From an uncultured bacterium (GTDB lineage Bacteria; Krumholzibacteriota; Krumholzibacteriia; JACNKJ01), in NCBI GenBank assembly GCA_963695095.1, contig CAVOFT010000001.1, positions 2,560,001-2,624,000 on the forward strand: a stretch of 64,000 bases of DNA, read 5' to 3'. Positions 33,875-48,383 of this stretch are shown piece by piece. A program made the position numbers and the translations under genes. The notes under the pieces are model-generated. The model ran no database searches. It was not told the DNA's origin and saw only the letters and a program-made list of their open reading frames with translations. Numbering within the stretch: position 1 is the stretch's first letter; the number at the start of each line of letters is the position of its first letter.

Positions 33875-36800
33875 TCATTTGAGCAAGACCAACTTCTCGC
33901 TGGCGGTGAAATCCCCCGCCACCATGCGGACGAAATAGACACCGCTGGCCACGCGGGCGCCGGCATCGTCGGTGCCGTTCCAGACCACCTCGTGCTCGGC
34001 GGCCGGCAGCGGCATGTCCACCAGCGTGCGCACGCGGCGGCCGGCGAGGTCGTAGACCACCAGGCGCACCTGCTCCGGCGTGGCGATCGCGAAGTGCAGG
34101 GTGGTCTTCGGGTTAAAGGGGTTCGGGTAGGCGCCGGCAAGTGCGGTGTGCGCGGGCACCGCGTCCGCACCGTCTGGCAAGTAGTTGGGATCGAAGCCGC
34201 AGAGGTAGGCCAGCACATCGCCCACCAGGCGGCGCGGGTAGTCGTAGCCGTCGCCGAGACCAAAGCCCGCGTTCCGGACGTCCTCGTAGTTGAAGGGGTT
34301 GAAGAGCGTCCGGTTGGTGAAGCCAAGGGCGCTGGTGGCGAGGCCGTCGCCATCGGGATCCATGTTGTAGATGCCCGCCTTGGCCTCGCTGCCGCCGGTG
34401 ACCGCCCAGGCGAAGGCCTCCACCGCGAGCGGGTTGGCCGGGTTCGGCTTCACGAGATCGAGGTTCTCGATCGTGGGGCAGCCCGCGGCCACCTCGACGT
34501 AGGGCGTCCGGCCACCGATCGCCAGCGCCGGATGCGTGGCGTAGACGCGCGGCACCTTGATGCCGGTCAGGTCGTCGTAGTAGGTGCCGCTGAGGATGCG
34601 CCAGGCTCCCAGGGTCTCCCGGAGGAAGCTCGGCTCGTCCTCGAGGTCGGTCGCGACCTCGTTGCCCATCACCCAGAGCGCGGTGTTGTGGGCGCTGTTC
34701 GCGAGCCAGTCGTCCAGCAGGACATCGTCGAAGGCGATGTCGTCCGGCAACCCGTTCTGGATCGTGTAGGTGGGCAGGTCGCCGCTGTCCCAGACGATCA
34801 TCTCGTACTGGTCGATGTCGCCGATCTCGGCGCGGCCGCCGAGGCCGTTGTGCAGGCCCGAGCTCGGCGCCTGCGTGGTGTAGACGTCATAGTCCGCGAA
34901 GCCGTTGTAGGCGAAGGCCTCGCGCCAGGGGGCGATCAGGCTGCCGCTGCCCGCATCGGGGTGGCTGGCGTCGTCCACGAAGAGCAGCGTGGCGCCGGCC
35001 GTGGGCAAGCAGCGGAGGATGTAGGTAGCTGCGCAGCAGCGGGTCCGCGCTCTCGGCCCAGAGCGGCTGCGTGTGCCGGCCGCCCGCCGCCGAGTGGGCA
35101 CGGTAGTAGAACTCGATGATGTCCCCCGGCTCGAAGTAGTCGTCCGCGAAGTCGAAGGCGAACTGCGCCCGGCTCGCAGACGCCCTGCTCGCGCGCCGTG
35201 TCGGCGATGGCCACGTTCCAGGTCTCGCCGTTCAGCACCGCGGTGCCGATCCAGGGCGACCAGATGCCGTCGCTGGCGTCGGGGTCGCCCATCGCCGGGT
35301 CGGTGGAGCCCGCGTGCGGCCCGGCCGTCACGCGGGCGTGCAGGTAGAGGCTCGGCCGCACTTCGCCCGGCACGCCGGCGAGATCGGGCGCGATGCCGCC
35401 CTCGGCGTCCATGTTGAGGTCGATCTTGGTCGAGTCGCCGATCACGAGCGTCGTGCTGGTCGTCGGCTGCACGTCGATGGCGCTGTCGATGCGCACCTTG
35501 CCGCTGGCCTCGGGGAAGTTGTCCTGGAAGCGGCGGAAGACGTCCACGTTCCAGGCGACTGAGGTGTTGCCGTTGACGATCATCGCCGAGATCGTGTCGA
35601 AGTAGGGTGCCGGCGTGTGGGGCTCCTCCCCCCCGAAACACCACGCCTCGCACATGTCGATTGCGGTGAAGGCGATGGAGAGTCCCTGCACGTTGCCGCC
35701 GTGCGCCGCTGTCGCCATGCGCAGCGTGTAGTCGAGGAAGGAGTCGCGCCAATCGTCTTCACCGTAGTAGACGGTGTTGTTGTTAACCCAGGAGCTGAGA
35801 CAGGGCGTGCCCTCGACCTGTGCGGCGACGTGCAGCATGTAGAAGACCAAGGTGCTGATCGGCAGGTCGCAGTAGACCATGGCGCGCACGAGGAACGTGC
35901 TGTTCCCGTCAAGCGCGTCGTCGACACTCTGCCCCACCGGATCCCCCAGACCGTGCGCCCGCTCGAAGAGCGGGCTCTGGATGCCGTTGTCGAAGTAGGG
36001 CGGGCCGTAGGGCGTCACGGGGATCGGGTAGTCGGGGTTCGTCGTGTACAGATCGAAGAAGGCCCAGGCGTAGGTGGAGTTGATGATGCAGGGGTCCTCG
36101 GCGAAGAGGTTCTTGTACAGGGCGCCGTAGATGCCGGCGCCTTCCGGATAGGTCGCCGCCAGCGCGGGGAAGTCGGCCTCGACGCCGCTCTCGAAGTCCC
36201 AGGCGACGTCCGGCGCGCCCTCGTAGTCGACGACGAGGTTGTCGATCCACACCGCGCCGATGTCCGTGAGGAAGGAGCCGTCCTCGTCCGACCAGCCGCC
36301 GTCCGACTTGAAGGCGAAGATCAGCTCGTCGACGGCGCCGAAGGCGATGGGACCGTAGTGGATGACGGTGCGCTCGCCGTTCGAGTGATGTTGTAGGCCG
36401 ACTCGATCGGATCGGCGTCGCCGGTGCTTCGCGTAGAGCGTGAAGTAGTCGTAGTCGTCTGCCCTCGAAGTCGCCGATGTAGTCGAACTCCATCGTGCCG
36501 CCGTGGCCGCGGCCGGAACCGTGAGCACCAGCCACTGGCTCCAGTCGGTGCCGTAGCCGTTGGAGTTGAACCAGCCGCAGGCGTTCTCGCGTCCGCACCA
36601 CCAGGCGTAGTCGTTGCCGGCCGTGGGGCCGCCATCGGCGAAGTCATCCACCGACGAGAAGTCCGTGCCGTGCCCGTTGCTCAGGGTGAGCGCCTGCAGG
36701 TGCCAGTAGGTGCCGAGCTGGGCGGTGGCGTCGTAGGTGGTCCAGCCGGCCGTGGTCGGGCCGCCGGCGCCGTTGTCGAAGGTGTAGCCGCGCGCGTTGG

Positions 36801-37008
36801 TGCCCGTCATGCCCCAGGCGCCGGGTCCCGAGGCGGCAAAGAGGAAGAGCGTGTCCGCCCGCGGCGTTGCCGTGCTCACGGGATCCGGCACCGGCGCGAA
36901 GGCGTCGATCATCGGGCGTTCCGCCTGCCCGACCTCTCGCGCCAACCCGAAACCCGCTGTGAGGGTCGCCAGTGCGACAAGCAGAGTCGTCAGGATCCTG
37001 CGCTTCAC
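33875..37008 (-). CDS. Large (~1040 aa) secreted Cys/Asp-rich protein with FlgD-Ig C-terminal domain, paralogue B; several frameshifts
   Basis: Signal peptide from GTG 37008; WWCG..GYG..W, FKSDGGWSDEDG, FQDNFPEASG, YPNPFNP...SEKLVLLK*; colinear with 37111..40222. Confidence 0.75.
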
Positions 37009-37110
37009 GATTCCCCCCTCGGCATCCCCGCCGCACCCAGCGCTCGCGGGTGGTATGTTCGGACCTGTCGCGCGCGTCCGCACCTGCGAGAGTGCTCGCG
37101 CCCGAGCGCC

Positions 37111-40100
37111 TTACTTGAGCATGACCAACTTTTCACTCGCGCGGAAGTCTCCCGCCACCAGACGCGCGAAGTAGACGCCGCTGGCCACGCGGAGGCCGGC
37201 GTCGTCGGTGCCGTCCCAGACCGCTTCGTGCTCGGCCGCCGACAGCGGCATGTCCACCAGCGTGCGCACGCGGCGGCCGGCGAGGTCGTAGACCACCAGG
37301 CGCACCTGAGCCGGCGCGGCCAGCGCGAAGTGCAGGGTTGTCTTCGGGTTGAAGGGATTCGGCGCCGCTCCCGCGAACGCAAAGCGCGCGGGCACCGTGT
37401 CCGCGGCGTCCGGGCTCGCATTGGGCTCGAAGCCGCAGAGCGCCGAAAGCACGTCGCCCACCATCCGCCGCGCATAGTCATAGCCATTGCCAAGGCCGAA
37501 GCCCGCGTCCCAGACCTCGGCATAGCTGAACGGATTGAAGAGCGTGCGGTTCGTCCAGCCGCCGGGACTGGTGGCCAGGCCATTGCCATCCGGATCCTGG
37601 TTGTAGATGCCCGCCTTGGCCTGACTGCCGCCAGTCGCTGCCCAGGCGAAAGCCTCCACCGCGAGCGGGTTGGCCGAGTTCAGCACGACCAGGTCCAGGT
37701 TCTCGATCGACGGGCAGCCCGCGTCCACGGTGAAGTAGGGATCGAGGCCGCCGATCTCCAGGGCGGGGTGCGTCGCGTACACCCTGCGGCATCTTGACGC
37801 CGGTCAGGTCGTCGTAGTAGGTGCCGTTGAGGATGCGCACAGCCCCGAGGGCCTCGTTCAGGAAGCTGGGCTCGTCCGCCAGGTCGGTGGCCACCTCGTT
37901 GCCCATCACCCAGAGGCAGGTGTTGTGGGCGCTGTTCGCAAGCCAGTCGTCCAGCAGGACATCGTCGAAGGCGATGTCGTCCGGCAGCGCGTTCTGGATC
38001 GTGTAGGTGGGCAGGTCGCCGCTGTCCCAGATGATCAGCTCGTACTGGTCGATGTCGCCGATCTCGGCGCGCCCGCCGAGCCCGTTGTGCAGGCCCGAGC
38101 TGGGCGCCTGCGTCGCGTAGATGTCGAAGTCCGTATAACCGTTGTAGGTGAAGGCCTCCTGCCACCAGGGCAAGGTGGTGTTGGCGTCGTCGCAGAAGAG
38201 CATCGTCACCCCGGCCGTGGGCAAGCAGCGCAGGAGGTAGTGCTCGCGCAGCAGCGGGTCCGCGCTCGCAGCCCACAGCGGCCGCGTCGAGACGGTGCCC
38301 AGGGCAGAGATCGCCCGGTAGTAGAACTCCAGGACGTCCCCGGGCTCGAAGTAGTCGTCCGCGAAGTCGAAGGCCCAGGAACCGGGGCTCGGCGTGCCCT
38401 GGTAGCGGGCCGTGTCGGCGATGGCCACATTCCAGGTCTCGCCGTTCACCACCGCCGTGCCGATGTGCGGCGACCAGATGCCGTCGCTGGCGTCGGGATC
38501 ACCCATGGCTGGATCCGTGGAGCCCGCATGCGGGCCGGCCACCACCCGCGCGAGCAGGTAGACGCTGGCCCGCCGCTCGCCGGGCACGCTGACGAGGTCG
38601 GGCTGGATGCCGCCCTCGCCGTTCATGTTCAGGTCGACCCGGGTCGAGTCGCCGATGACGAGCGTGGTGCTGTTGGTGGGCTCGACGTCGATGGCGCTGT
38701 CGATGCGCACCTTGCCGGAGGCCTCGGGGAAGTTGTCCTGGAAGCGGCGGAACTGGTCGATGTTCCAGGCGATCGAGGAGCTGTTCACCAGCATCATGGA
38801 GATCATGTCGAAGTAGGGCGCCGGCGTGTGGTAGGTGCCGTCGCCGTAGGTGTTGCACCAGACGGCGCACTGATCGACCACGCCCAGCCGCACGCCGACA
38901 CCGGTGACGTTGCCGCCCCCGGCCGACATGTTGAGCCGGAGTGTGTAATCGAGAAACCAGTCCTGCCAGCCGTCCTCCCCGTAGAAGAGCGTGTTGTTCG
39001 TGTACCACTGCCCGTAGCAGGGCTGGCCCTCCACCTGCGCAGCCACGTGCAGCTCGTAGAAGACCAGCGTATTCAAAGGCAGGTCGCGATAGACCATGTA
39101 GCGCACGAGGAATTGCGAGTTGGCATCGTGGGCCTCATCCACGCTGAGGCCCACGGGATCGCCGAGCGCGTGCGCACTTCTCGCAGCACCGGACTCAGGA
39201 TGCCGTTGTCGAAGTAGGGCGGGCCGTAGGGCGTCACCGGAATCGGGTACTCGGGGTTGGTCGTGTTGAGATCGAAGAAGGCCCAGGCGTAGGTGGAGTT
39301 GACGATGCACTGATCCTCGGCATACAGGTTCGCGTAGAGCGCGCCGTACATGCCGGCGCCGGGCGCGAAGCTGGCCGCCAGCTCCGGGTAGTTGGCCTCC
39401 ACGCCGTCCTCGAAGTCCCAGGCCACATCCGGCGCACCCGTGTAGTCGATCTCGACGTTGTCCAGCCACACCGCGCCGATGTCCGAGGTGTAGGAGCCGT
39501 CCTCGTCCGACCAGCCGCCGTCGGAGCGGAACTCGAAGATCAGCTCGTCGACGGCGCCGAAGGCGATCGGGCCGTAGTGGCGCACGAGCTGCTCGCCCTC
39601 GACGTTGTTGCTCAACAGCTCGACGGGCTCGTCGCCGCCGGTCTTGGCGTAGAGGGTGAAGGTGTCGTAGCTGTCGCCCTCGAAATCGCCGATGTAGTCG
39701 AACTCGAGCGCGCCCGCCGTAGCCGCCGCGGGCACGGTGAGCACCAGCCACTGGTCCCAGCTATTGCCATAGCCGGTGGGATTCGTCCAGCCACAGGCTT
39801 CCTCGCGGCCGCACCACCAGGCGTAGTCGTTGCCTGCCGTGGGCCCGCCATCGGCGAAGTCATCCGGCGCTGGAGAAGTCCGTGGGATGCCCATCGCTCA
39901 GGGTGAGCGCCTGCAGGTGCCAGTAGGCGGCGTTGTCCGCGGTGCCATCGTAGGGCGTCCAGCCGGCCGGGGCCGAGCCCCCGTTGCCGTCATCGAAGGT
40001 GTAGCCGCGTTCGTTGGTGCCCGGCATGCCCCAGGCGCCGGGGCCCGAGGCGGCGAAGAGAAAGAGCGTGTCGGCCCGCAGCGCCGACGTCGTCACAGTA

Positions 40101-40222
40101 GTGGGCGGCGGGGCGCTGGCGGCGAAGTCCGGACGCGCGTCGGTAAGGACCTCGCGGGCCAAAGCGGCGACGGCGATCAGGACGAGCAGGGAGAACGCAA
40201 GGGTCAGGGAGAGCGTGCGCAT
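37111..40222 (-). CDS. Large (~1035 aa) secreted protein with FlgD-Ig C-terminal domain, paralogue A; frameshifts near 39870, 39180 and 37785
   Basis: Signal peptide MRTLSLTLAF; same motif series as paralogue B; ends APNPFNP...SEKLVMLK*. Confidence 0.75.
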
Positions 40223-40368
40223 CGTCTTACCCCCCAATCAGGCAGCAGAGGTTCCGAGACGGATCGGCCGAGCGAAGCCGATCCTGTCCGCCGCCGGCCC
40301 CCCGGCGATAGGGGGCCTGGAGCGCCGGCACGGACTCGTGTGGGGCAAGCTACTCAACTATAGCTGCT

Positions 40369-42157
40369 TCAGGACTGCCTGTCCACCAGGCGCTCCCAGC
40401 GGAGGTAGAGCGCCGCCAGCTCGGCCCCGAGCGCCTCGAGCCGGGCGCGATCCTGGGCCACTTGAGCGCCGGCCCGCTGGTAGTGGGCAGGATCGGCGAG
40501 CCGCGCGTGCAGGTCCCCCTGCTCGGCCTCCAGGCTCTCGATGCGCCCGGGCAGCGCCTCCAGCTCCCGCTCCTCGCCCCAGCTCAGGCGCTTCGCGGGC
40601 GCGGGGCGCGCTTGCTCTCGCGGGCGGCTGGCGGCCGCCTTGGCGCGCGCGGGCGCCGAGCGCCGGGTGCGGGCCCAGTCCGAGTAGCCCCCCACCGTCT
40701 CGGCCACCGCGCCCGCTCCCTCCAGCACCAGCGTGCTGGTGGTGACGTTGTCCAGGAACTCGCGGTCGTGGCTCACGAGCAGCAGCGTGCCCGGCCAGGC
40801 GACGAGCTGCTCCTCGAGCAGCTCGACCGTCTCCAGGTCCAGGTCGTTGGTGGGCTCGTCGAGCACCAGCAGGTTGGCCGGACGCGCCAGGAGCCGGGCC
40901 AGGAGCAGGCGGTTGCGCTCGCCGCCGGAGAGACGGCTGAGCGGCGAACGCAGCTGCTCCGGGGCGAAGAGGAACTGCTGGAGATAGCGAGGTCACGTGC
41001 ACGCTGCGGCCGCCGACCGTCAGCATCTCGCCGCCCTCGGTCACGTTGTCCTGCACGCTGCGGGCTTCATCCAGCTGGTTGCGCTGCTGGTCGAAGTAGG
41101 CCACCTGGAGGCCCGCGCCCAGCTCCACCGTGCCGCCCTGCGGGGCCAGCTCGCCCAGGATGAGGCGGAGCAGGGTGGTCTTGCCCGAGCCGTTCGGGCC
41201 CAGGATGCCCACCTTGTCGCCGCGCGTGATCACCGTGCTGAAGCCGCGCAGGATCACCTGCTCGCCCCAGGCGAAGTCCACGCCGCGGGCGCGCAGGACC
41301 AGGCGGCCCGAGCGCTCGGCATTCTGCAAGCCCAGCTGCGCGCCGCCGGTTCGCTCGCGGCGGGCCTGGCGTTCAGCCCGCAAGCGCTCCAGCGCCCGCA
41401 CGCGCCCCTCGTTGCGCGTGCGCCGGGCGCGGATGCCCTGGCGCAGCCAGACCTCCTCGGCCGCCAGCTTGCGGTCGAACTCGGCGTTCTGCGCCAGCTC
41501 GACCGCGGAGAGCGCCTCGCGGCGCTCGAGATAGGCGGCGTAGTCGCAGGCCCAGCTGCGCAGGCGCCCGCGATCCAGCTCCAGGATGCGCCCGGCCAGA
41601 GCGCGCAGGAAGGCGCGGTCGTGGGTGACGAAGAAGAGCGCGCCCGGGAAGCGCCGCAGCTCGCCTTCGAGCCAGGCGATGGCGTCGATGTCCAGGTGGT
41701 TGGTGGGCTCGTCGAGGAGGAGCAGGTCCGGCGCCACCACCAGGGCGCGGGCGAGCAGGGCCCGCCGCTTGCCGCCGGTGGAGAGCGTGGCCAGGTCGGC
41801 GTCACCGTCCAGACCGGCCCGCGTGAGGGCCTGCTCCACCAGGTGGGCCTGTTCGGGTCCGGCCGGCGGCAGGCCGGCCGCGGCGAAGCCCGCGGCCACC
41901 GTCTCGCGCACGCCGCCGGCGAGCGGCTCCGGCAGCTCCTGGGGCAAGAGGGCCACGCGCAGGCCCGGGGCGCGGGCGATCTCGCCGGCGTCGGGGGCCA
42001 GCGCGCCCTGGAGGAGGCGAAGCAGGGTGGTCTTGCCGGCGCCGTTGCGCCCCAGCAGGCAGATGCGCTCGCCGCGCTCGATCTGCAGCTGGACGCCGTC
42101 AAGGAGGAGCGGCCCGCCCAGGGCGAGGGAGACGTGCTTGAGGTCGACGAGGGCCAT
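40369..42157 (-). CDS. uup: ABC-F ATPase (Uup-like); frameshift near 40990
   Basis: Two Walker A motifs (GRNGAGKTT, GPNGSGKTT); LDEPTNHLD and LDEPTNDLD; ARRTRNEGRVRAL linker; C-terminal KRLSW.E.REL..LP..IE coiled coil. Confidence 0.85.
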
Positions 42158-42277
42158 GGCGGCAGAAGGTAGAGCAGCGCGCCGGACGGGGCAAGCGACC
42201 CCTCGGGTGGAATGTAGCCGGCACCGCAGTCCAGCCGCTTGCGGACGCTGCGCTCGCGGCACTCGCCAATGCAGCCC

Positions 42278-43540
42278 TCAACGAAGCAGGAGCAGCTTCT
42301 GGTTCGCCTGCAGGCCCGCACCCTCCAGCCGCGCGAGGTAGAGCCCCGTTGGCTGCGCGCGGCCGCTGTCATCCTCGCCGCGCCAGATCAGCTCGTGGTG
42401 CCCTGCGCCGCGGGCCTCGTCGAGCAAGGTCGCGACGCGCCGCCCCGCCGCATCGTGGATGCTCAAGCGCACCCACGCGCCCTCGACGAGCGTGAAGCTC
42501 AGCGTGCTGGCCGGATTGGCCGGATTCGGCCAGGGCGCTTCCAGCCGCAGCCTTGCCGCCGCGAGCGACGGGGCCGCCACCGCGTTCGGCAGGCCAATGA
42601 ACAGGTGCACCAGGCCCTGGTTCGAGCCGACGAGCAGATCCTGGCGGCCATCCCCGTCCCAGTCCCAGGCGAAGGGGCGGGACCGGCCCTGGTCGCCGAG
42701 GTCGATGGGCTGGCTGAGGCTCTCGCAGTGCCCGCCCGCGCCGAAGGCCGGCGCCGCGTGGCTGCCGAGATTGCGATAGAAGTACAGCTCGCCTTCGGAG
42801 TTGCCGCAGATGAGATCCTTGGCGCCGTCGCCGTCGAAATCGGCCACGGAGGGACTCGAATAGCCCAGCGGCACGACGAGCTGGCCGTCGCCGTCCGCGA
42901 TGTAGAGCGTGTGCCGGAAGTCCGGCGGCAGGCCGCCGCCCTCGTTGTAGTAGAGGCGCAGCTTGCCGTCGATGGAGCCCACGAGCAGGTCGAAGCGGCC
43001 GTCCTCGTTCCAGTCCACGATGCAGGGGGTTGCCCGGCCACCCACCGAGATGTCGAACTTGCCTCCGGACGGCCCCACCTGCACGCGGGCGCCGGTGTCG
43101 AAGAGCGGCGCCTCGGCCGTGCCCACGTTGAGGTGGATGTAGACGAAGCCGTCGCTCGTGCCCAGGATCAGATCGGGGAGTTCATCGTCGTTCCACCGCG
43201 CGACGCGCGGCGCCAGGCCCAGGCATCAGCCGCCGGGGTAGTTCAGTTCCCCGGCCGTGGTCTGGAGAAAGCTGAAGTCGCCGAAGCTCGGCGGTCCCGC
43301 CAGACCCTCATTGAGGTAGAGGCGCACCTTGCCGGGGATGAGCCCGCTCCCCTCGCCGACGAGCAGGTCGACGAAGCCGTCGCCATCGAGATCCGCGAGG
43401 CAGGGCACCGAGTGACCGTCGACGATGAGCGTCTCGCCGTGGGCGGGCAGGTCCTGCTCGGCAGCAAACTGGATGAAAGCCGCTGCGGGAGCGGCTGCCA
43501 CCAGGACTGCCAGCGTCAGGAGTGCACGAACTCCAATCAT
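42278..43540 (-). CDS. Secreted FG-GAP/VCBS repeat protein with FlgD-Ig tail; in-frame TGA at 43228-43226 (candidate selenocysteine, U105)
   Basis: ORFs 43226..43540 and 42278..43126 are in the same frame, separated only by TGA; read-through gives YPGG-U-CLGLAPRVARWNDDELPDLILG, completing repeat 2; 420 aa in total. Confidence 0.8.
43195..43228 (-). promoter_or_regulatory. Candidate bacterial SECIS element
   Basis: UGA, then 14 nt, then stem GCCGCGC / loop GUC / GCGCGGU; loop begins 21 nt after the UGA. Confidence 0.5.
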
Positions 43541-43696
43541 TCCTCAGCCTCCTTTCGCCGATCCGCCGATCGACCGACCGAGTATAGCATCTGACGAATG
43601 GCTGAGGCTTCCCCAGGTTCAGAAATGTGCTAGACTGCCTGGCGGGGATGGCGGACCGGCGCTTGCAGCCCCGGGTCCGCCGCGGAGGGGAAGCCG

Positions 43697-45667
43697 ATGC
43701 GCGAGAGGCTGCTGCTTGGTCTGCTCTGGCTGGTCGCCGCGACGGCGGCCCTCGCCCAGGCCCCGCTCCCCTCTGCCCTGCTCGACGCGCCGCTGGCCCG
43801 CCTCGGCCATGCCGACAGGGCCAGCCTGCGCGAATTCCTGGGCCCCGATTCGACCCTCGTCCTGATTCTCTGGAACACGGACTGTCCCGATTGTCTCGAG
43901 AATGTCGCCGAGGCCGGAGCCCTCGCGGCCACGCTCCCCTCGCTCCGCGTGCTCGGGGTGATGGACGACGCCGATCCCTGGGATGCGCTGGCTTTCGCCG
44001 AAGCGCGCGGCCTCGACTTCCCGAACCTCCACGATCCCGGCGGGCTCTTCGCCACCGCCCTCGGCACCGAGGGCAGCAGCTTCTCCTTCGCCCTGCTGGA
44101 TGGCGCTGGCGGCCTGCTCGCGCTCGCCGTCGACAAGCAGCCCGATGCGGCCGCCGCCCTTCGCGCCGCGCTGGCCGCCCTGCCCGCTGCGGCGCCGGTC
44201 GGAACCGCGCCCAGACCGGGCGAAGCTGCGGCGCAGGCGCCCGCGGCCGCACACTTCCCGCTCGTGAGCGGCAGCGGGCAACTCCGTCTCGCCGCCCTGG
44301 CCGTGGGCCTCGAGGACCGCCTTGGCGAGGGCCCCTGCCCTGGCGAGCCCGCGCTCTGCGCCTGCAGCCTGGGCGGCGCCTACGGAGAGGACCTGCGGCC
44401 GCTGGCCGATGTCCTCTTCCGGCTGCGCTACGAGCTCGTCGCCCAGCTCTCGCCCCGCCTGCGCGCCGGCGCCTTCCTGCGCCTCAGCAACGAGCCCGTC
44501 GCGCTGCTCGCCCAGGGCCCCGAGTACCTCTCGAGCGAGCGCGGCAGCGCCTTCGCGGAGTATGCGACCGGCGCCTGGTCGGCGCGCCTGGGCTGGACGG
44601 CCCTGCACTTCAGTCCGCTCACCCTCCAGCGCTGGGACTTCGCGGACAATCCGCCCGTCGCCGGCACCGGCGGGGCCGGCGGCTGCGGCGCTTGCGGCGC
44701 CACCAGCCACGCCCTGGCGCTCGAGGCCCTGGACGAGCTGGGCCCCGAGCTCACGGTCGAGGGCCTGCGCCTGCAGGGCTCACCGCGTCCCTGGCTGAGC
44801 GCCACCCTCGCCTATGCCCGCCCGCGCCGCGCGCAGGCCTTCGACGCCAATGCCGATCCACCCTTCGCCTATCGCCAGGATCTGCTCGCGGGCCGGCTCG
44901 CGCTGCGGCCCCCGCTGGGCCGCGGCCGGCGCGCGACGCTCGCGCTCCACTACGTCGCCGCCAACGAGGACGGCGGCTCCGCGCGCTGGCCGCTCTACGC
45001 GGGCGACGCGCGCAGCTTCGTCCGCCATGGCGAGGTCTACGGCGCGCTGCTCACCGCCCCCTTGCCCGGCGGCCTCGAACTCGAGCAGGAGGCCACGCGC
45101 AGCACGACGCGCGTGGACCGCATCGACGCTCGCGGCGAGGCCGTCGAGGACTGGGCCTATCGCGGCGAGCTGAGGGCCGCGCTGCCGGGCTCGCTGCATC
45201 TCGCCGCCGCCCGGCTGCGTCTGGGCCCGGACTATGGCGGCGAGTACCGCGCGCTCTCCTACCTGCCCAACACGGAGGGCTGGCGCTTCGCCGCCGGCAT
45301 GCGCAGAGAACGCTGGGGACTGGCCCTCTTTCACAAGCGGCTGACGCGCTGCGAAGGGCCCGAGCTGGGCACGAGCCTGGCCGAAGCGCGCAGCAGCGGG
45401 GTTCTGCTCAGCCTCGTCCCCGGGGCCGGCAGCGGACTCGAGCTGGGCGGCACCTGGATTCGCGAGCGGCTCGAAGGCGCAGCCCTCATCGGCGACTGCC
45501 GCTGCGCGCGCGATTGCGACAAGCGCATCCTCACGCTGGCCGGGCATCACGGCCTGGGCCCGCGCACCCGGCTCAGCCTCGAGCTGAGCCGGATCGACAG
45601 CGAGGACGGCAGGGGCGGCGAGGCCGAGTCCGATCTGGCCCGCCTCCTGCTCTCGACGGCGTTCTGA
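43697..45667 (+). CDS. Secreted thioredoxin-like (TlpA/redoxin) domain fused to a probable outer-membrane beta-barrel with Cys clusters
   Basis: Signal peptide; LWNTDCPDC...FPNLHDPG; Ala/Pro linker; amphipathic strands, HFSPLTL motif, terminal Phe. Confidence 0.65.
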   Translation: MRERLLLGLLWLVAATAALAQAPLPSALLDAPLARLGHADRASLREFLGPDSTLVLILWNTDCPDCLENVAEAGALAATLPSLRVLGVMDDADPWDALAFAEARGLDFPNLHDPGGLFATALGTEGSSFSFALLDGAGGLLALAVDKQPDAAAALRAALAALPAAAPVGTAPRPGEAAAQAPAAAHFPLVSGSGQLRLAALAVGLEDRLGEGPCPGEPALCACSLGGAYGEDLRPLADVLFRLRYELVAQLSPRLRAGAFLRLSNEPVALLAQGPEYLSSERGSAFAEYATGAWSARLGWTALHFSPLTLQRWDFADNPPVAGTGGAGGCGACGATSHALALEALDELGPELTVEGLRLQGSPRPWLSATLAYARPRRAQAFDANADPPFAYRQDLLAGRLALRPPLGRGRRATLALHYVAANEDGGSARWPLYAGDARSFVRHGEVYGALLTAPLPGGLELEQEATRSTTRVDRIDARGEAVEDWAYRGELRAALPGSLHLAAARLRLGPDYGGEYRALSYLPNTEGWRFAAGMRRERWGLALFHKRLTRCEGPELGTSLAEARSSGVLLSLVPGAGSGLELGGTWIRERLEGAALIGDCRCARDCDKRILTLAGHHGLGPRTRLSLELSRIDSEDGRGGEAESDLARLLLSTAF

Positions 45668-45707
45668 GCGCGGCCTGCCCACCGGCCGGCTGCGCCTGGA
45701 CAGGGAG

Positions 45708-46280
45708 GTGAAGGCGATGACAGCGCGCATCGGCATGGCGGTCCTGGCCTTGGCCCTCGCGGCGAGTCCGCTTGGCGCCGATCAGGATCCCAGCGACCCG
45801 CAGCTCATCAGGATCGAAGGCGAGACCTTCGTGGCCAGCCACAACACCGGTGGCTTCAACATCGGGGTGGCCTTCTGCGGGAGTGCCAGCGGCTACTACG
45901 TGGCCGACGGCATCGATCAGCCCGGCGAGTGGATCGAGCTGGCCCTGACGCTCCCCGCGAACACGATCTACACGGCGCGCCTGGCGGTGCAGGGCTGGCC
46001 GGGCGAATTCAACATCCTGCAGCTCGAGTTCCTCCCCGCCGCGGGCGCTGGTTCACGCTCGAGCACGGAGTTCCGATTCACGGGCATCGGGGTGGGCTGC
46101 GATGTGCCCTACCTCTGGGTCGCGGGCGAGCTGCCGCTCTGCGCGAGCGCCGGCAGTTACCGGGCGCGCATCAGCCTGACGAGCGGCACGCTCGCGCGCA
46201 TCGACCTGCTGGAACTGAGCTACGAGAACACGCCGACGGCCGCGCACTCCTGGAGTCGCATCAAGTCGCTCTATCCCTAG
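45708..46280 (+). CDS. Small secreted beta-sandwich (CBM-like) protein with SWSRIKSLYP tail
   Basis: Signal peptide; IRIEGE..., GIDQPGEWIE jelly-roll pattern; start may be ATG 45717. Confidence 0.65.
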   Translation: MKAMTARIGMAVLALALAASPLGADQDPSDPQLIRIEGETFVASHNTGGFNIGVAFCGSASGYYVADGIDQPGEWIELALTLPANTIYTARLAVQGWPGEFNILQLEFLPAAGAGSRSSTEFRFTGIGVGCDVPYLWVAGELPLCASAGSYRARISLTSGTLARIDLLELSYENTPTAAHSWSRIKSLYP

Positions 46281-46319
46281 TGGATGAGCCCTCGGCCGCG
46301 CGGGCCCGGCCGCACGGCA

Positions 46320-48383
46320 TCAGGCGACCGGCAGCGCCTGCAGCAGCAGCACGCTGCGATCGCCCACGCGATAGCTGCCGCCCGGCAGCGCGGGCGCGGC
46401 GGCCGGCAGGCGCAGGTCCTCGCCGGGCGCGAGGCTGGTGTCGAGCACGCGGTGCCAGGCGCGCCCGGGCGGCGGCGGCGGCAGCTCGAAGTCCAGCGGC
46501 TCCGTCCAGGCGTTCAGGCACAGGTGCACCCACTCGCCCTCGCCGGGCCGGCTCAGCGTGCAGGCCAGGCTCGAGGAGCTGGCGGTCCAGTCCGGCGTGC
46601 CCAGCTTGACCCCGTGCCACTGCAGCAGCGTGCCGCCGGCGCCGTCCTCGCGCCAGAAGCGCTCGTCCTTGAAGATGGCCAGGGCGCGGATGTAGGCGGC
46701 GAGATCGCGGACGAAGCCGTGCAGGGCGCAGCGGGCCGCCAGGGGCGACCAGTCCAGCCAGGCCAGCGCGTTGTCCTGGCAGTAGACGTTGTTGTTGCCC
46801 TGCTGGCTGCGGCCCAGCTCGTCGCCCATCGAAAGCATCGGCGCGCCCTGGGCGATGAGCAGCAGGGCCAGGAAGTTGCGCTGCTGCCGCGCGCGCAGGG
46901 CGAGCAGGCGCGCGTCGTCGGTCGGTCCCTCGACGCCGTAGTTGGCGCTGTAGTTGTCGTCCGAGCCGTCGCGGTTGTCCTCGCCGTTCGCCTCGTTGTG
47001 CTTCTGGGCGTAGCTGACCAGATCGGCCAGCGTGAAGCCGTCGTGGCAGGTGACGAAGTTGATGCTGCGGTTGGCCTCCAGCGCCGGGTTCGCGTAGAGG
47101 TCCGGGCTGCCGGCCAGGCGCAGGGCGACCGCGGGCACCAGCCCCTCATCCCCGCGCAGGAAGCGGCGCAGGTCGTCGCGGAAGGGGCCGTTCCACTCGG
47201 CGAAGCGCTCGCCGGTGAAGGAGCCCACCTGGTAGAGGCCCGCCGCGTCCCAGGCCTCGGCGATCAGCTTGCTGCCGGCCAGCACCGGGTCCGAGTCGAT
47301 GGACCACAGGATGGGCGCGTTCTCGCGCGGCTTGCCCTTGCCGTCGCGGCTGAGCACCGAGGCGAGGTCGAAGCGGAAGCCGTCCACGTGCATCTCGGCC
47401 ACCCAGTAGCGCAGGCAGTCGAGGATGAGATGCCGCATCACCGAGTGGTTGGCGTTGACCGTGTTGCCGCAGCCCGTGAAGTTCGCGTAGCGCGAGGGCT
47501 CCTCGCCCGCGATGTAGTAGGCGCCGTTGTCCAGCCCCTTGAAGGAGAGCGTGGGGCCGCGCTCGTCGCCCTCGGCCGTGTGGTTGAAGACGACATCGAG
47601 GATCACCTCGATACCGGCCCTGTGCAGGGCCTTGACCATGTCGCGAAACTCGTCCACCGGTCCCAGCGGGTCGCGCCGCGAGCTGTAGGGACCGTGCGGG
47701 GCGAAGAAGGCCAGCGGACTGTAGCCCCAGTAGTTCACCCTCCCCAGCGGCGCGTCCAGAGGATCGAAGTGCTGGACGGGCAGGAGCTCCACCGCCGTGA
47801 CCCCGAGGTCCACGAGGTAGGGGATCTTCTCGATGAGGCCGGCATAGCTGCCGCGCAGGGCGGGCGCCAGGCCCGAGCTCTCGTGGCGCGTGAAGCCCCC
47901 CACGTGCAGCTCGTAGATGAGCGTCTCGCCATAGGGCCGGCACAGCGGCCGGTCGCCCTCCCAGTCGTAGTCCCGCGTGTCCACCACCACCGAGCGCAGC
48001 GCCTGGGCGCAGTTGTCGCCGGGGCGGATGGCGGCCACGCGGTCGTAGGCGGCGCCCATCACGACGGCGCGGGCATAGGGGTCCAGCAGCAGCTTCTCGC
48101 CGTCGAAGCGCAGTCCCCGCGAGGGCGCGAAGGGCCCGTGCGCCCGCCAGCCGTAGACCTGCCCCGCGCCCAGGCCCTTGACCAGCACGTGCCAGTAGTC
48201 GGCGGTGCGGTGGCGGCGGGCGTCCAGCCTGATCACGCGCGCGGGGGCCGGATCCTCGGGGCCGGCAAAGAGGATCAGCTCCAGGCACTGGGCATGCCGG
48301 GAGTAGATCGCGAAGTTGACGCCGCCCGCCTGCAGGCTCGCGCCGAGGGGATGGCTGATGCCGGGATGGATGTCGCTGAGCAC
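46320..48383 (-). CDS. glgX: Glycogen debranching enzyme (isoamylase, GH13)
   Basis: NYWGY, LDVVFNHTAEG, VDGFRFDLAS, LIAEAWD, INFVTCHDGFTL, GNNNVYCQDN. Confidence 0.96.
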   Translation of the reverse strand: MLSDIHPGISHPLGASLQAGGVNFAIYSRHAQCLELILFAGPEDPAPARVIRLDARRHRTADYWHVLVKGLGAGQVYGWRAHGPFAPSRGLRFDGEKLLLDPYARAVVMGAAYDRVAAIRPGDNCAQALRSVVVDTRDYDWEGDRPLCRPYGETLIYELHVGGFTRHESSGLAPALRGSYAGLIEKIPYLVDLGVTAVELLPVQHFDPLDAPLGRVNYWGYSPLAFFAPHGPYSSRRDPLGPVDEFRDMVKALHRAGIEVILDVVFNHTAEGDERGPTLSFKGLDNGAYYIAGEEPSRYANFTGCGNTVNANHSVMRHLILDCLRYWVAEMHVDGFRFDLASVLSRDGKGKPRENAPILWSIDSDPVLAGSKLIAEAWDAAGLYQVGSFTGERFAEWNGPFRDDLRRFLRGDEGLVPAVALRLAGSPDLYANPALEANRSINFVTCHDGFTLADLVSYAQKHNEANGEDNRDGSDDNYSANYGVEGPTDDARLLALRARQQRNFLALLLIAQGAPMLSMGDELGRSQQGNNNVYCQDNALAWLDWSPLAARCALHGFVRDLAAYIRALAIFKDERFWREDGAGGTLLQWHGVKLGTPDWTASSSSLACTLSRPGEGEWVHLCLNAWTEPLDFELPPPPPGRAWHRVLDTSLAPGEDLRLPAAAPALPGGSYRVGDRSVLLLQALPVA

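Follow-up and report, generated by a model that had tools for sequence, protein, structure and literature searches.

An in-frame TGA probably read as selenocysteine in a predicted exported FG-GAP propeller protein of an uncultured bacterium

We propose that the internal TGA of the gene at 42278..43540 is read as selenocysteine (Sec) and that this is a real selenoprotein gene, a reading drawn from sequence comparison to which we assign a probability of about 0.96. The gene lies in the window, i.e., the whole 64-kb stretch of DNA analysed here, and its features are collected in Table 1. According to the first-pass annotation, two open reading frames on the minus strand, 43540-43226 (104 amino acids) and 43126-42278 (282 amino acids), are a single frame split by a TGA alone. 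Inspection of the frame agreed with this; only one TGA (43228-43226) and 33 sense codons lie between the two, and read-through yields a product of 420 amino acids with G-G-U-C-L-G at residues 103-108. The Cys codon directly after the TGA and the hairpin with its loop 21 nt downstream, a GUC loop on an 8-bp stem, were likewise found as described. The TGA had also been called the only clean in-frame stop. A codon-usage scan of the window returned three in-frame stops between coding-like stretches, two of them at gene junctions with a start codon within a few codons, and the TGA at 43228-43226 was the only one in mid-gene. No match to a sigma-70 promoter or a terminator was found within 42100-46400. 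Of five sequencing runs, none contained half of the sequence words of the locus, and no contig from four of them bridged the TGA, so that these runs do not bear on the codon.

Table 1. Positions in the window of the propeller gene, its parts and the neighbouring genes
Feature	Position	Strand	Details
Putative selenoprotein gene, predicted exported FG-GAP propeller, whole gene	42278..43540	-	420 codons plus terminal TGA
Predicted signal peptide, about residues 1-21	43478..43540	-	Hydrophobic helix ending A-A-A; read by eye
Predicted five-bladed beta-propeller, FG-GAP/VCBS repeats with DxxxDG loops	42590..43474	-	Pfam, structure model and fold search
In-frame TGA, codon 105, inferred selenocysteine	43226..43228	-	Homologue comparison and hairpin
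Cys106, invariant Cys of the propeller family	43223..43225	-	TGA instead in 11/94 loci
Candidate bSECIS hairpin within the coding sequence	43194..43212	-	8-bp stem, GUC loop 21 nt after TGA
C-terminal FlgD-Ig domain	42281..42550	-	Pfam PF13860 FlgD_ig, residues 349-405
Predicted exported redoxin domain (C-P-D-C) plus DUF6029-like domain	43697..45667	+	Pfam AhpC-TSA/Redoxin; atlas 0.95 to DUF6029 cluster
Predicted exported CBM6/35-like protein, 190 residues	45708..46280	+	Cys131 (46098-46100) is TGA in most homologues

The read-through protein matched FG-GAP_3 (PF13517) of Pfam in four stretches with 76.8 bits against a cut-off of 26.9 (E 1.9e-21). The leader forms a helix over residues 2-15 in the predicted structure, and most TGA homologues whose N-terminus is complete have a similar one. 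This Pfam score, the propeller model and the leader peptide support the exported beta-propeller proposed in the first-pass annotation. Two further matches were rejected as products of shared FG-GAP repeats, namely TcdB_toxin_midN of Pfam (E 0.008, below cut-off) and FusH of NCBIfam (37.9 bits against 999). FlgD-Ig tails occur in many paralogous copies in the window's genome, and T9SS-type names appear on homologues; the tail is probably an export or surface-sorting tail. The C-terminal tails of the propeller domain vary among homologues, between FlgD-Ig, PEP-CTERM-like and dockerin-like tails (labels that we take partly from general knowledge) and none. Two large exported proteins with FlgD-Ig tails, paralogues of each other encoded in tandem, lie at 33875-40237 (-) of the window; each is broken over several frames, probably by assembly indels. 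An ABC-F (Uup-like) ATPase gene, frameshifted near 40990, lies downstream of the propeller gene at 40358-42154 (-), and an ABC-F gene is likewise downstream of a propeller gene with TGA followed by Cys in genome G001.

Homologues were compared at columns 105 and 106, the positions of the TGA and of the following Cys. The 164 loci, taken from genomes and metagenomes, gave 106 distinct contexts after filtering; 12 of these were discarded as other blades or as lacking the motif, and 94 were kept, window included. The loci fell into three classes: TGA followed by Cys (UC, 26 loci), TGA replacing the invariant Cys (xU, 11 loci) and Cys only (xC, 57 loci). All 37 stops at the two columns across the 94 loci were TGA, without a TAA or TAG, and the same TGA-bearing genes ended in TGA in just 15 of 35 cases. 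Homologues with a protein identity as low as about 27-35% still kept the TGA. The 61 related genomes gave 17 full-length matches, of which 12 carry exactly one TGA. When 208 genomes of the phylum were searched, 29 had a match, and the 30 loci obtained comprised 6 UC (none new), 12 xU (7 new) and 12 xC (8 new); one TGA locus of this search, L218, escaped the class pattern. The source names of the Cys forms include Phycisphaerae, Sedimentisphaerales and Ca. Eisenbacteria. Cys-only propeller paralogues were also seen about 8 kb from selA (G004:C16:80257-81492 and G009:C4:78011-80582) and 31 kb from it in G005. A profile search of 1.84 billion representatives was dominated by long FG-GAP repeat proteins, and its best 150 held no convincing family motif and two loose pattern matches.

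The non-Sec homologues of the xU forms clearly carry Cys at column 106, and this Cys was present in all 89 database proteins spanning the site, after Gly in 85 (among 121 proteins listed, 31 of which begin downstream of the TGA column at gene-caller starts). The first-pass annotation had expected TGA or Cys at the column of the TGA itself, and most non-TGA homologues departed from this: Gly occupied column 105 in 54 of 57 xC loci and in those 85 database proteins, and Cys in none of the 57 or the 89. A search with distant UC members gave Cys at column 105 in 2 of 120 proteins (P0325 with Cys-Cys and P0284 with Cys-Asn), and at least two of the 120 have lost both residues. Gly at this position had been named beforehand as a sign against Sec; taken at face value the sign is there, and we consider it overridden by the other evidence. 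The proposed vicinal Sec-Cys pair stood in so far as U-C was found in 26 of 94 loci. As a trait of the family it did not stand, as the loop of 31 of 57 xC loci holds one Cys only, and the pair is therefore not essential to the family; the other 26 have a second Cys within the loop, mostly at -5 or +3. The Sec of the window would thus be an extra chalcogen beside the invariant Cys, which is the next residue, and in the 11 xU loci Sec takes the place of the invariant Cys itself. Other pair geometries were seen in xU variants, i.e., C-G-U in L045 (G007) and U-P-C in L050 (G006) and L113. On a quick unrooted tree built with the two columns masked, UC required 4 changes and lay on most deep branches, and xU required 9 changes for 11 rows and was scattered.

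We then considered the hairpin. The bSECIS consensus given in PMC13188914 has a loop of 3-9 nt, G within its first two positions, at a distance of 16-37 nt from the UGA, and a stem of 4-16 bp with -7.5 kcal/mol or better. The window hairpin has an energy of -13.4 kcal/mol, spans 13-32 nt downstream of the UGA and fits this consensus in our own scan (not bSECISearch), which answers the suggestion to score it with a bSECIS model. It did not differ significantly from dinucleotide shuffles in any of four folds (z +1.28, +1.55, -0.73 and +1.28), and against synonymous shuffles p was 0.027. The caveat that hairpins form by chance proved justified: among 4000 random genomic TGA triplets, 16% had a model-type hairpin at -7.5 kcal/mol or below and 2.2% at -13.4 kcal/mol or below. 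Comparison across the family was more informative. A strict hairpin at -7.5 kcal/mol or below was found in 14 of 37 TGA loci versus 2 of 57 Cys-only loci, and the hairpin beat synonymous shuffles (p<=0.05) in 14/26 UC, 2/11 xU and 0/57 xC loci; a relaxed call was unspecific, passing 23 of the 57 Cys-only loci. The three core pairs were Watson-Crick in 26/26 UC, 4/11 xU and 1/57 xC loci, and were present in one of the eight new xC loci of the phylum search. Among 25 distinct rows, one stem pair was A-U 14 times and G-C 11 times, a compensatory pattern in which the wobble base of the Pro111 codon varies together with a Val/Ala exchange at residue 114. The covariation score was 0.357, compared with 0.150 or less in slid registers, and was reached by none of 500 shuffles; the structure was derived from the same sequences that were tested and kin are not independent, with two phylogenetically independent pairs supported, too few for an independent-pairs test. 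Several xU genes have the loop shifted by one codon along with the TGA, and the spacing between the two is again 20-21 nt. Judged from these alignments, the hairpin is confined to TGA forms and covaries, and it is this comparative test, not the window alone, that carries weight.

The window's genome (3.64 Mb, 2 contigs, 93.5% complete) encodes selA, selB and selD, all over the curated NCBIfam cut-offs, and a tRNA-Sec (selC) at 71.9 bits; all four genes that the first-pass annotation had advised looking for are thus present, and selD itself carries one TGA. All 61 related genomes have selA, and because every relative has it, this set cannot confine the TGA forms to Sec users. Both selA and tRNA-Sec are also present in the genomes that carry the distant TGA loci L012 and L010. 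In the window's genome, TGA terminates 309 of 645 long ORFs, and the propeller gene as well, and the tRNA-Sec was the sole tRNA found with a TCA anticodon; codes in which TGA means Gly or Trp therefore do not apply. A genome-wide scan for in-frame stops with a hairpin at -7.5 kcal/mol or below gave 8/23 for TGA, 5/51 for TAG and 0/8 for TAA. Outside the propeller gene, strong hairpins accompanied in-frame TGAs of this genome (G000) at C1:2731343 (-), 1611446 (-), 1064804 (+), 3606819 (+) and 422777 (-); these include a peroxiredoxin-like TxxU and a thioredoxin-like UxxC.

The AlphaFold model had a pLDDT of 91.6 for the whole chain and a pTM of 0.91 for the repeat part. The best fold match of the repeat part was 3nqh, a GH43-type five-bladed propeller (Z 18.3, rmsd 3.3, 245 aligned, 10% identity), and the fold matches were 7-13% identical; no catalytic homologue is known. 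A Foldseek search of the whole model gave low TM-scores only, up to 0.37, to integrins and the BBSome, and the closest solved sequences were integrin alpha-4, ITFG2 and CRTAC1. In the model, the TGA maps to the loop that joins blade 1 to the inner strand of blade 2. A thioredoxin-fold oxidoreductase of the UxxC/CxxU type was ruled out by the all-beta propeller model and the U-C motif. Beyond the repeat framework, the best-kept residues in the alignment were C106, G108, P111 and Arg at 227/288, position 227 being Tyr in the window's genus. The Asp residues of the DxxxDG loops were near-invariant; FG-GAP DxxxDG loops bind calcium, and in propellers the loops leading into the inner strands form the pocket-bearing face. 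We infer from the model that U105-C106 is part of a loop insertion directly ahead of this inner strand of blade 2 and, by propeller topology, lies on the face opposite the Ca-type DxxxDG loops; judged from secondary structure, the conserved Arg would occupy the corresponding loops of blades 4 and 5. In the alignment of the propeller family, no His/Met cluster was conserved, nor was any acidic residue in the loops that precede the inner strands.

Termination at this TGA, through nonsense mutation of a Gly codon, a sequencing error in an error-prone assembly or a programmed split into two proteins, or its reading as Gly or Trp, would account for several observations. Gly is usual at the column and GGA becomes TGA by one change, several genes in the window are frameshifted, and a second protein was called after the TGA in 31 of the 121 proteins listed. 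However, the same TGA recurs in 26 loci from many assemblies and down to 27% identity, TAA and TAG never occur at the column, and GGA makes up 5 of the 57 codons found there in the Cys forms. In addition, the codon after the Cys is not a conserved start, and a true stop would leave a single blade, as the TGA precedes the inner strand of blade 2. Gly or Trp is opposed by the ordinary use of TGA as a stop and by the lone TCA tRNA noted above. We regard this whole group of explanations as highly improbable and retain insertion of Sec.

The gene divergent from the propeller gene starts 157 bases upstream of it and encodes a redoxin-barrel protein of 656 residues. Its DUF6029-like domain is probably an outer-membrane barrel, and a second CxxC lies in a Gly-rich loop of the barrel part. 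The redoxin-barrel gene was found in 14 of 61 relatives, nearly always adjoining the gene for the CBM-like protein, whose likeness to CBM domains (atlas 0.83-0.84) serves as a lead only. In the CBM-like family, TGA stood at the Cys131 column in 14 of 17 contexts, and a hairpin at -7.5 kcal/mol or below was present in 10 of 14 TGA contexts versus 0 of 3 Cys forms. A TGA paralogue is encoded in the window's genome at C1:1235238-1235777 (-). On this comparison, the CBM-like protein of the window is the Cys form of a second uncatalogued Sec/Cys family. Its gene adjoins the barrel gene in 11 of the 12 genomes having it; G011 carries two tandem copies, one with Cys and one with TGA, and the homologue L176 (G052:C20) has two TGAs and ends at the second, shortly before the usual C-terminal motif.

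Of 7 related genomes that have a UC propeller gene, 6 have it beside the barrel and CBM-like genes; it adjoins the pair in G000, G002, G004, G009, G010, G011 and the metagenome locus L092, divergently in six cases and convergently in G002. G001 has two UC copies without these neighbours, and in G006 and G007 the barrel gene is on other contigs. The linkage may be inherited synteny, because all linked genomes belong to one family. Across 89 loci of the wider propeller family, no neighbour was conserved and no metal-resistance or transport gene recurred. The UC clade of L161, L150, L151, L153 and L155 has a signal peptide and no C-terminal tail, and its members are probably soluble or periplasmic.

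Taken together, the comparative evidence suggests that SelB-tRNA(Sec) would read UGA105 by means of the hairpin 13-32 nt downstream. The domain evidence suggests that the 420-residue product would be exported and fold as a five-bladed FG-GAP propeller, and its Ig-like tail may sort it to the cell surface, a location predicted from the tail. There the site would display a reactive selenol/thiol that could cycle between a reduced state and a selenenylsulfide or mixed disulfide, with an extracellular substrate or partner as the target of U105-C106 and the neighbouring redoxin-barrel protein as the likeliest reductant. We hold this complete account, a Sec-read exported propeller with a surface redox site, to be somewhat better than an even bet. 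Once Sec is granted, redox-type chemistry at the U-C site appears moderately probable. That the neighbouring redoxin-barrel protein serves the propeller is a tentative assignment, held at less than even odds. More tentative still is an extracellular selenium/thiol relay in which the outer-membrane redoxin-barrel protein would pass electrons to the U-C propeller and the CBM-like G-x-G-U protein, two surface clients from uncatalogued selenoprotein families.

Two other uses of an inserted Sec were weighed against redox cycling. The U-C loop might bind a soft metal or metalloid (Cu, Ag, Hg or As) or carry persulfide-type sulfur or selenium at the cell surface, and hand its cargo to the neighbouring barrel protein without thiol-disulfide catalysis. 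CU/UC dipeptides do occur in the metal-related selenoproteins SaoL, SaoC, HgcA, MbdU and CopZ-like GxUC described in the part of PMC13188914 covered, the barrel part of the neighbour offers its second CxxC, and one reactive residue is enough in many propeller members. The lack of a recurring metal-resistance or transport gene beside the 89 loci and of a conserved His/Met cluster in the alignment nevertheless makes binding or carriage unlikely in our judgement. Sec might also be structural, in which case the ligand-binding loop of an adhesin- or lectin-like propeller would be stiffened by a vicinal Se-S ring or by bonding to a partner chain; most FG-GAP propellers are binding modules, as are the closest solved proteins named above, and the anchors on the domain vary. 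However, a vicinal ring is impossible in single-Cys members. The scatter of TGA at the invariant Cys across the tree suggests a chemically active residue that has been exchanged repeatedly. We consider a structural role clearly improbable and prefer redox cycling.

Sec reading of this TGA would give the bacterial selenoproteome a beta-propeller scaffold and a cell-surface location, the latter predicted from the tail. The family sits in databases as cut fragments, and it escapes the usual search for Sec/Cys pairs because its commonest form aligns Sec with Gly; this alignment suggests that more selenoprotein families are hidden likewise. The natural U-C, G-U, G-C and C-C variants of one loop are a ready test of what Sec gains over Cys. 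Together with the second Sec family, the redoxin-barrel neighbour points to a redox pathway of the envelope in uncultured bacteria, one open to reconstruction in a laboratory strain. If the relay is true, propellers would be a new scaffold for extracellular selenium chemistry, on which Sec shifts between adjacent positions with the SECIS moving along.

Finally, we compared the propeller with known systems. It has the DxxxDG repeat framework in common with FG-GAP/VCBS proteins (PF13517 and PF01839; integrin alpha, ITFG2 and CRTAC1) but five blades instead of seven, and its blade 2 holds a conserved (U/G)-(C/U)-x-G-x-x-P insertion; the papers searched describe no Sec in such proteins. The overall fold is like that of the five-bladed GH43/GH62/GH32-fold propellers (3nqh; Z up to 18.3), whereas identity is 7-13% and the residues conserved in the loops before the inner strands are Arg and Cys/Sec, not acidic ones. 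The fold shared with glycoside hydrolases is no evidence of function. No selenoprotein model of NCBIfam 20.0 matched the propeller, the redoxin-barrel protein or the CBM-like protein. As regards published catalogues, the 119 prokaryotic selenoprotein families in Table 1 of PMC13188914, in the part covered, include no beta-propeller or FG-GAP/VCBS entry, and these two results are in line with the first-pass view that the protein belongs to no classical selenoenzyme family. No propeller or FG-GAP match was present in the deep-Sep paper (PMC12013277; text and four supplements) or in the BSepDB paper (PMC13326102) with one supplement, the online database being outside the comparison, and no FG-GAP or propeller selenoprotein in the portions covered of PMC13745706 and bioRxiv 10.1101/2022.07.06.499078. 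A literature search for selenoproteins with FG-GAP, VCBS, beta-propeller or Krumholzibacteri found no description of the family. The family is thus absent from the catalogues compared, as far as these sources were covered, with the families of Haft and Tolstoy 2025 compared only through the listing in PMC13188914.

The propeller is like the bacterial selenoproteins with a coding-region bSECIS treated in the portion of PMC13188914 covered in its UGA, its 3-nt loop with G first, the presence of selA/B/C/D and, at column 106, the exchange of Sec and Cys. It differs from them in that Sec occurs at either of two adjacent columns and the window form aligns mostly with Gly. With the CU/UC selenoproteins SaoL, SaoC, HgcA, MbdU and CopZ-like GxUC it shares adjacent Sec and Cys and truncation by gene callers (PMC13188914, same portion). 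The CU/UC dipeptides and an exported CU protein are described in the part of bioRxiv 10.1101/2022.07.06.499078 covered, where some such proteins are exported (SaoC has a signal peptide) and Sec genes are clustered, as here; the propeller fold and its neighbours are unrelated to theirs. What would be new relative to these systems, as far as the catalogues were covered, is the beta-propeller scaffold, Sec at two adjacent columns and the link to a second uncatalogued Sec family.
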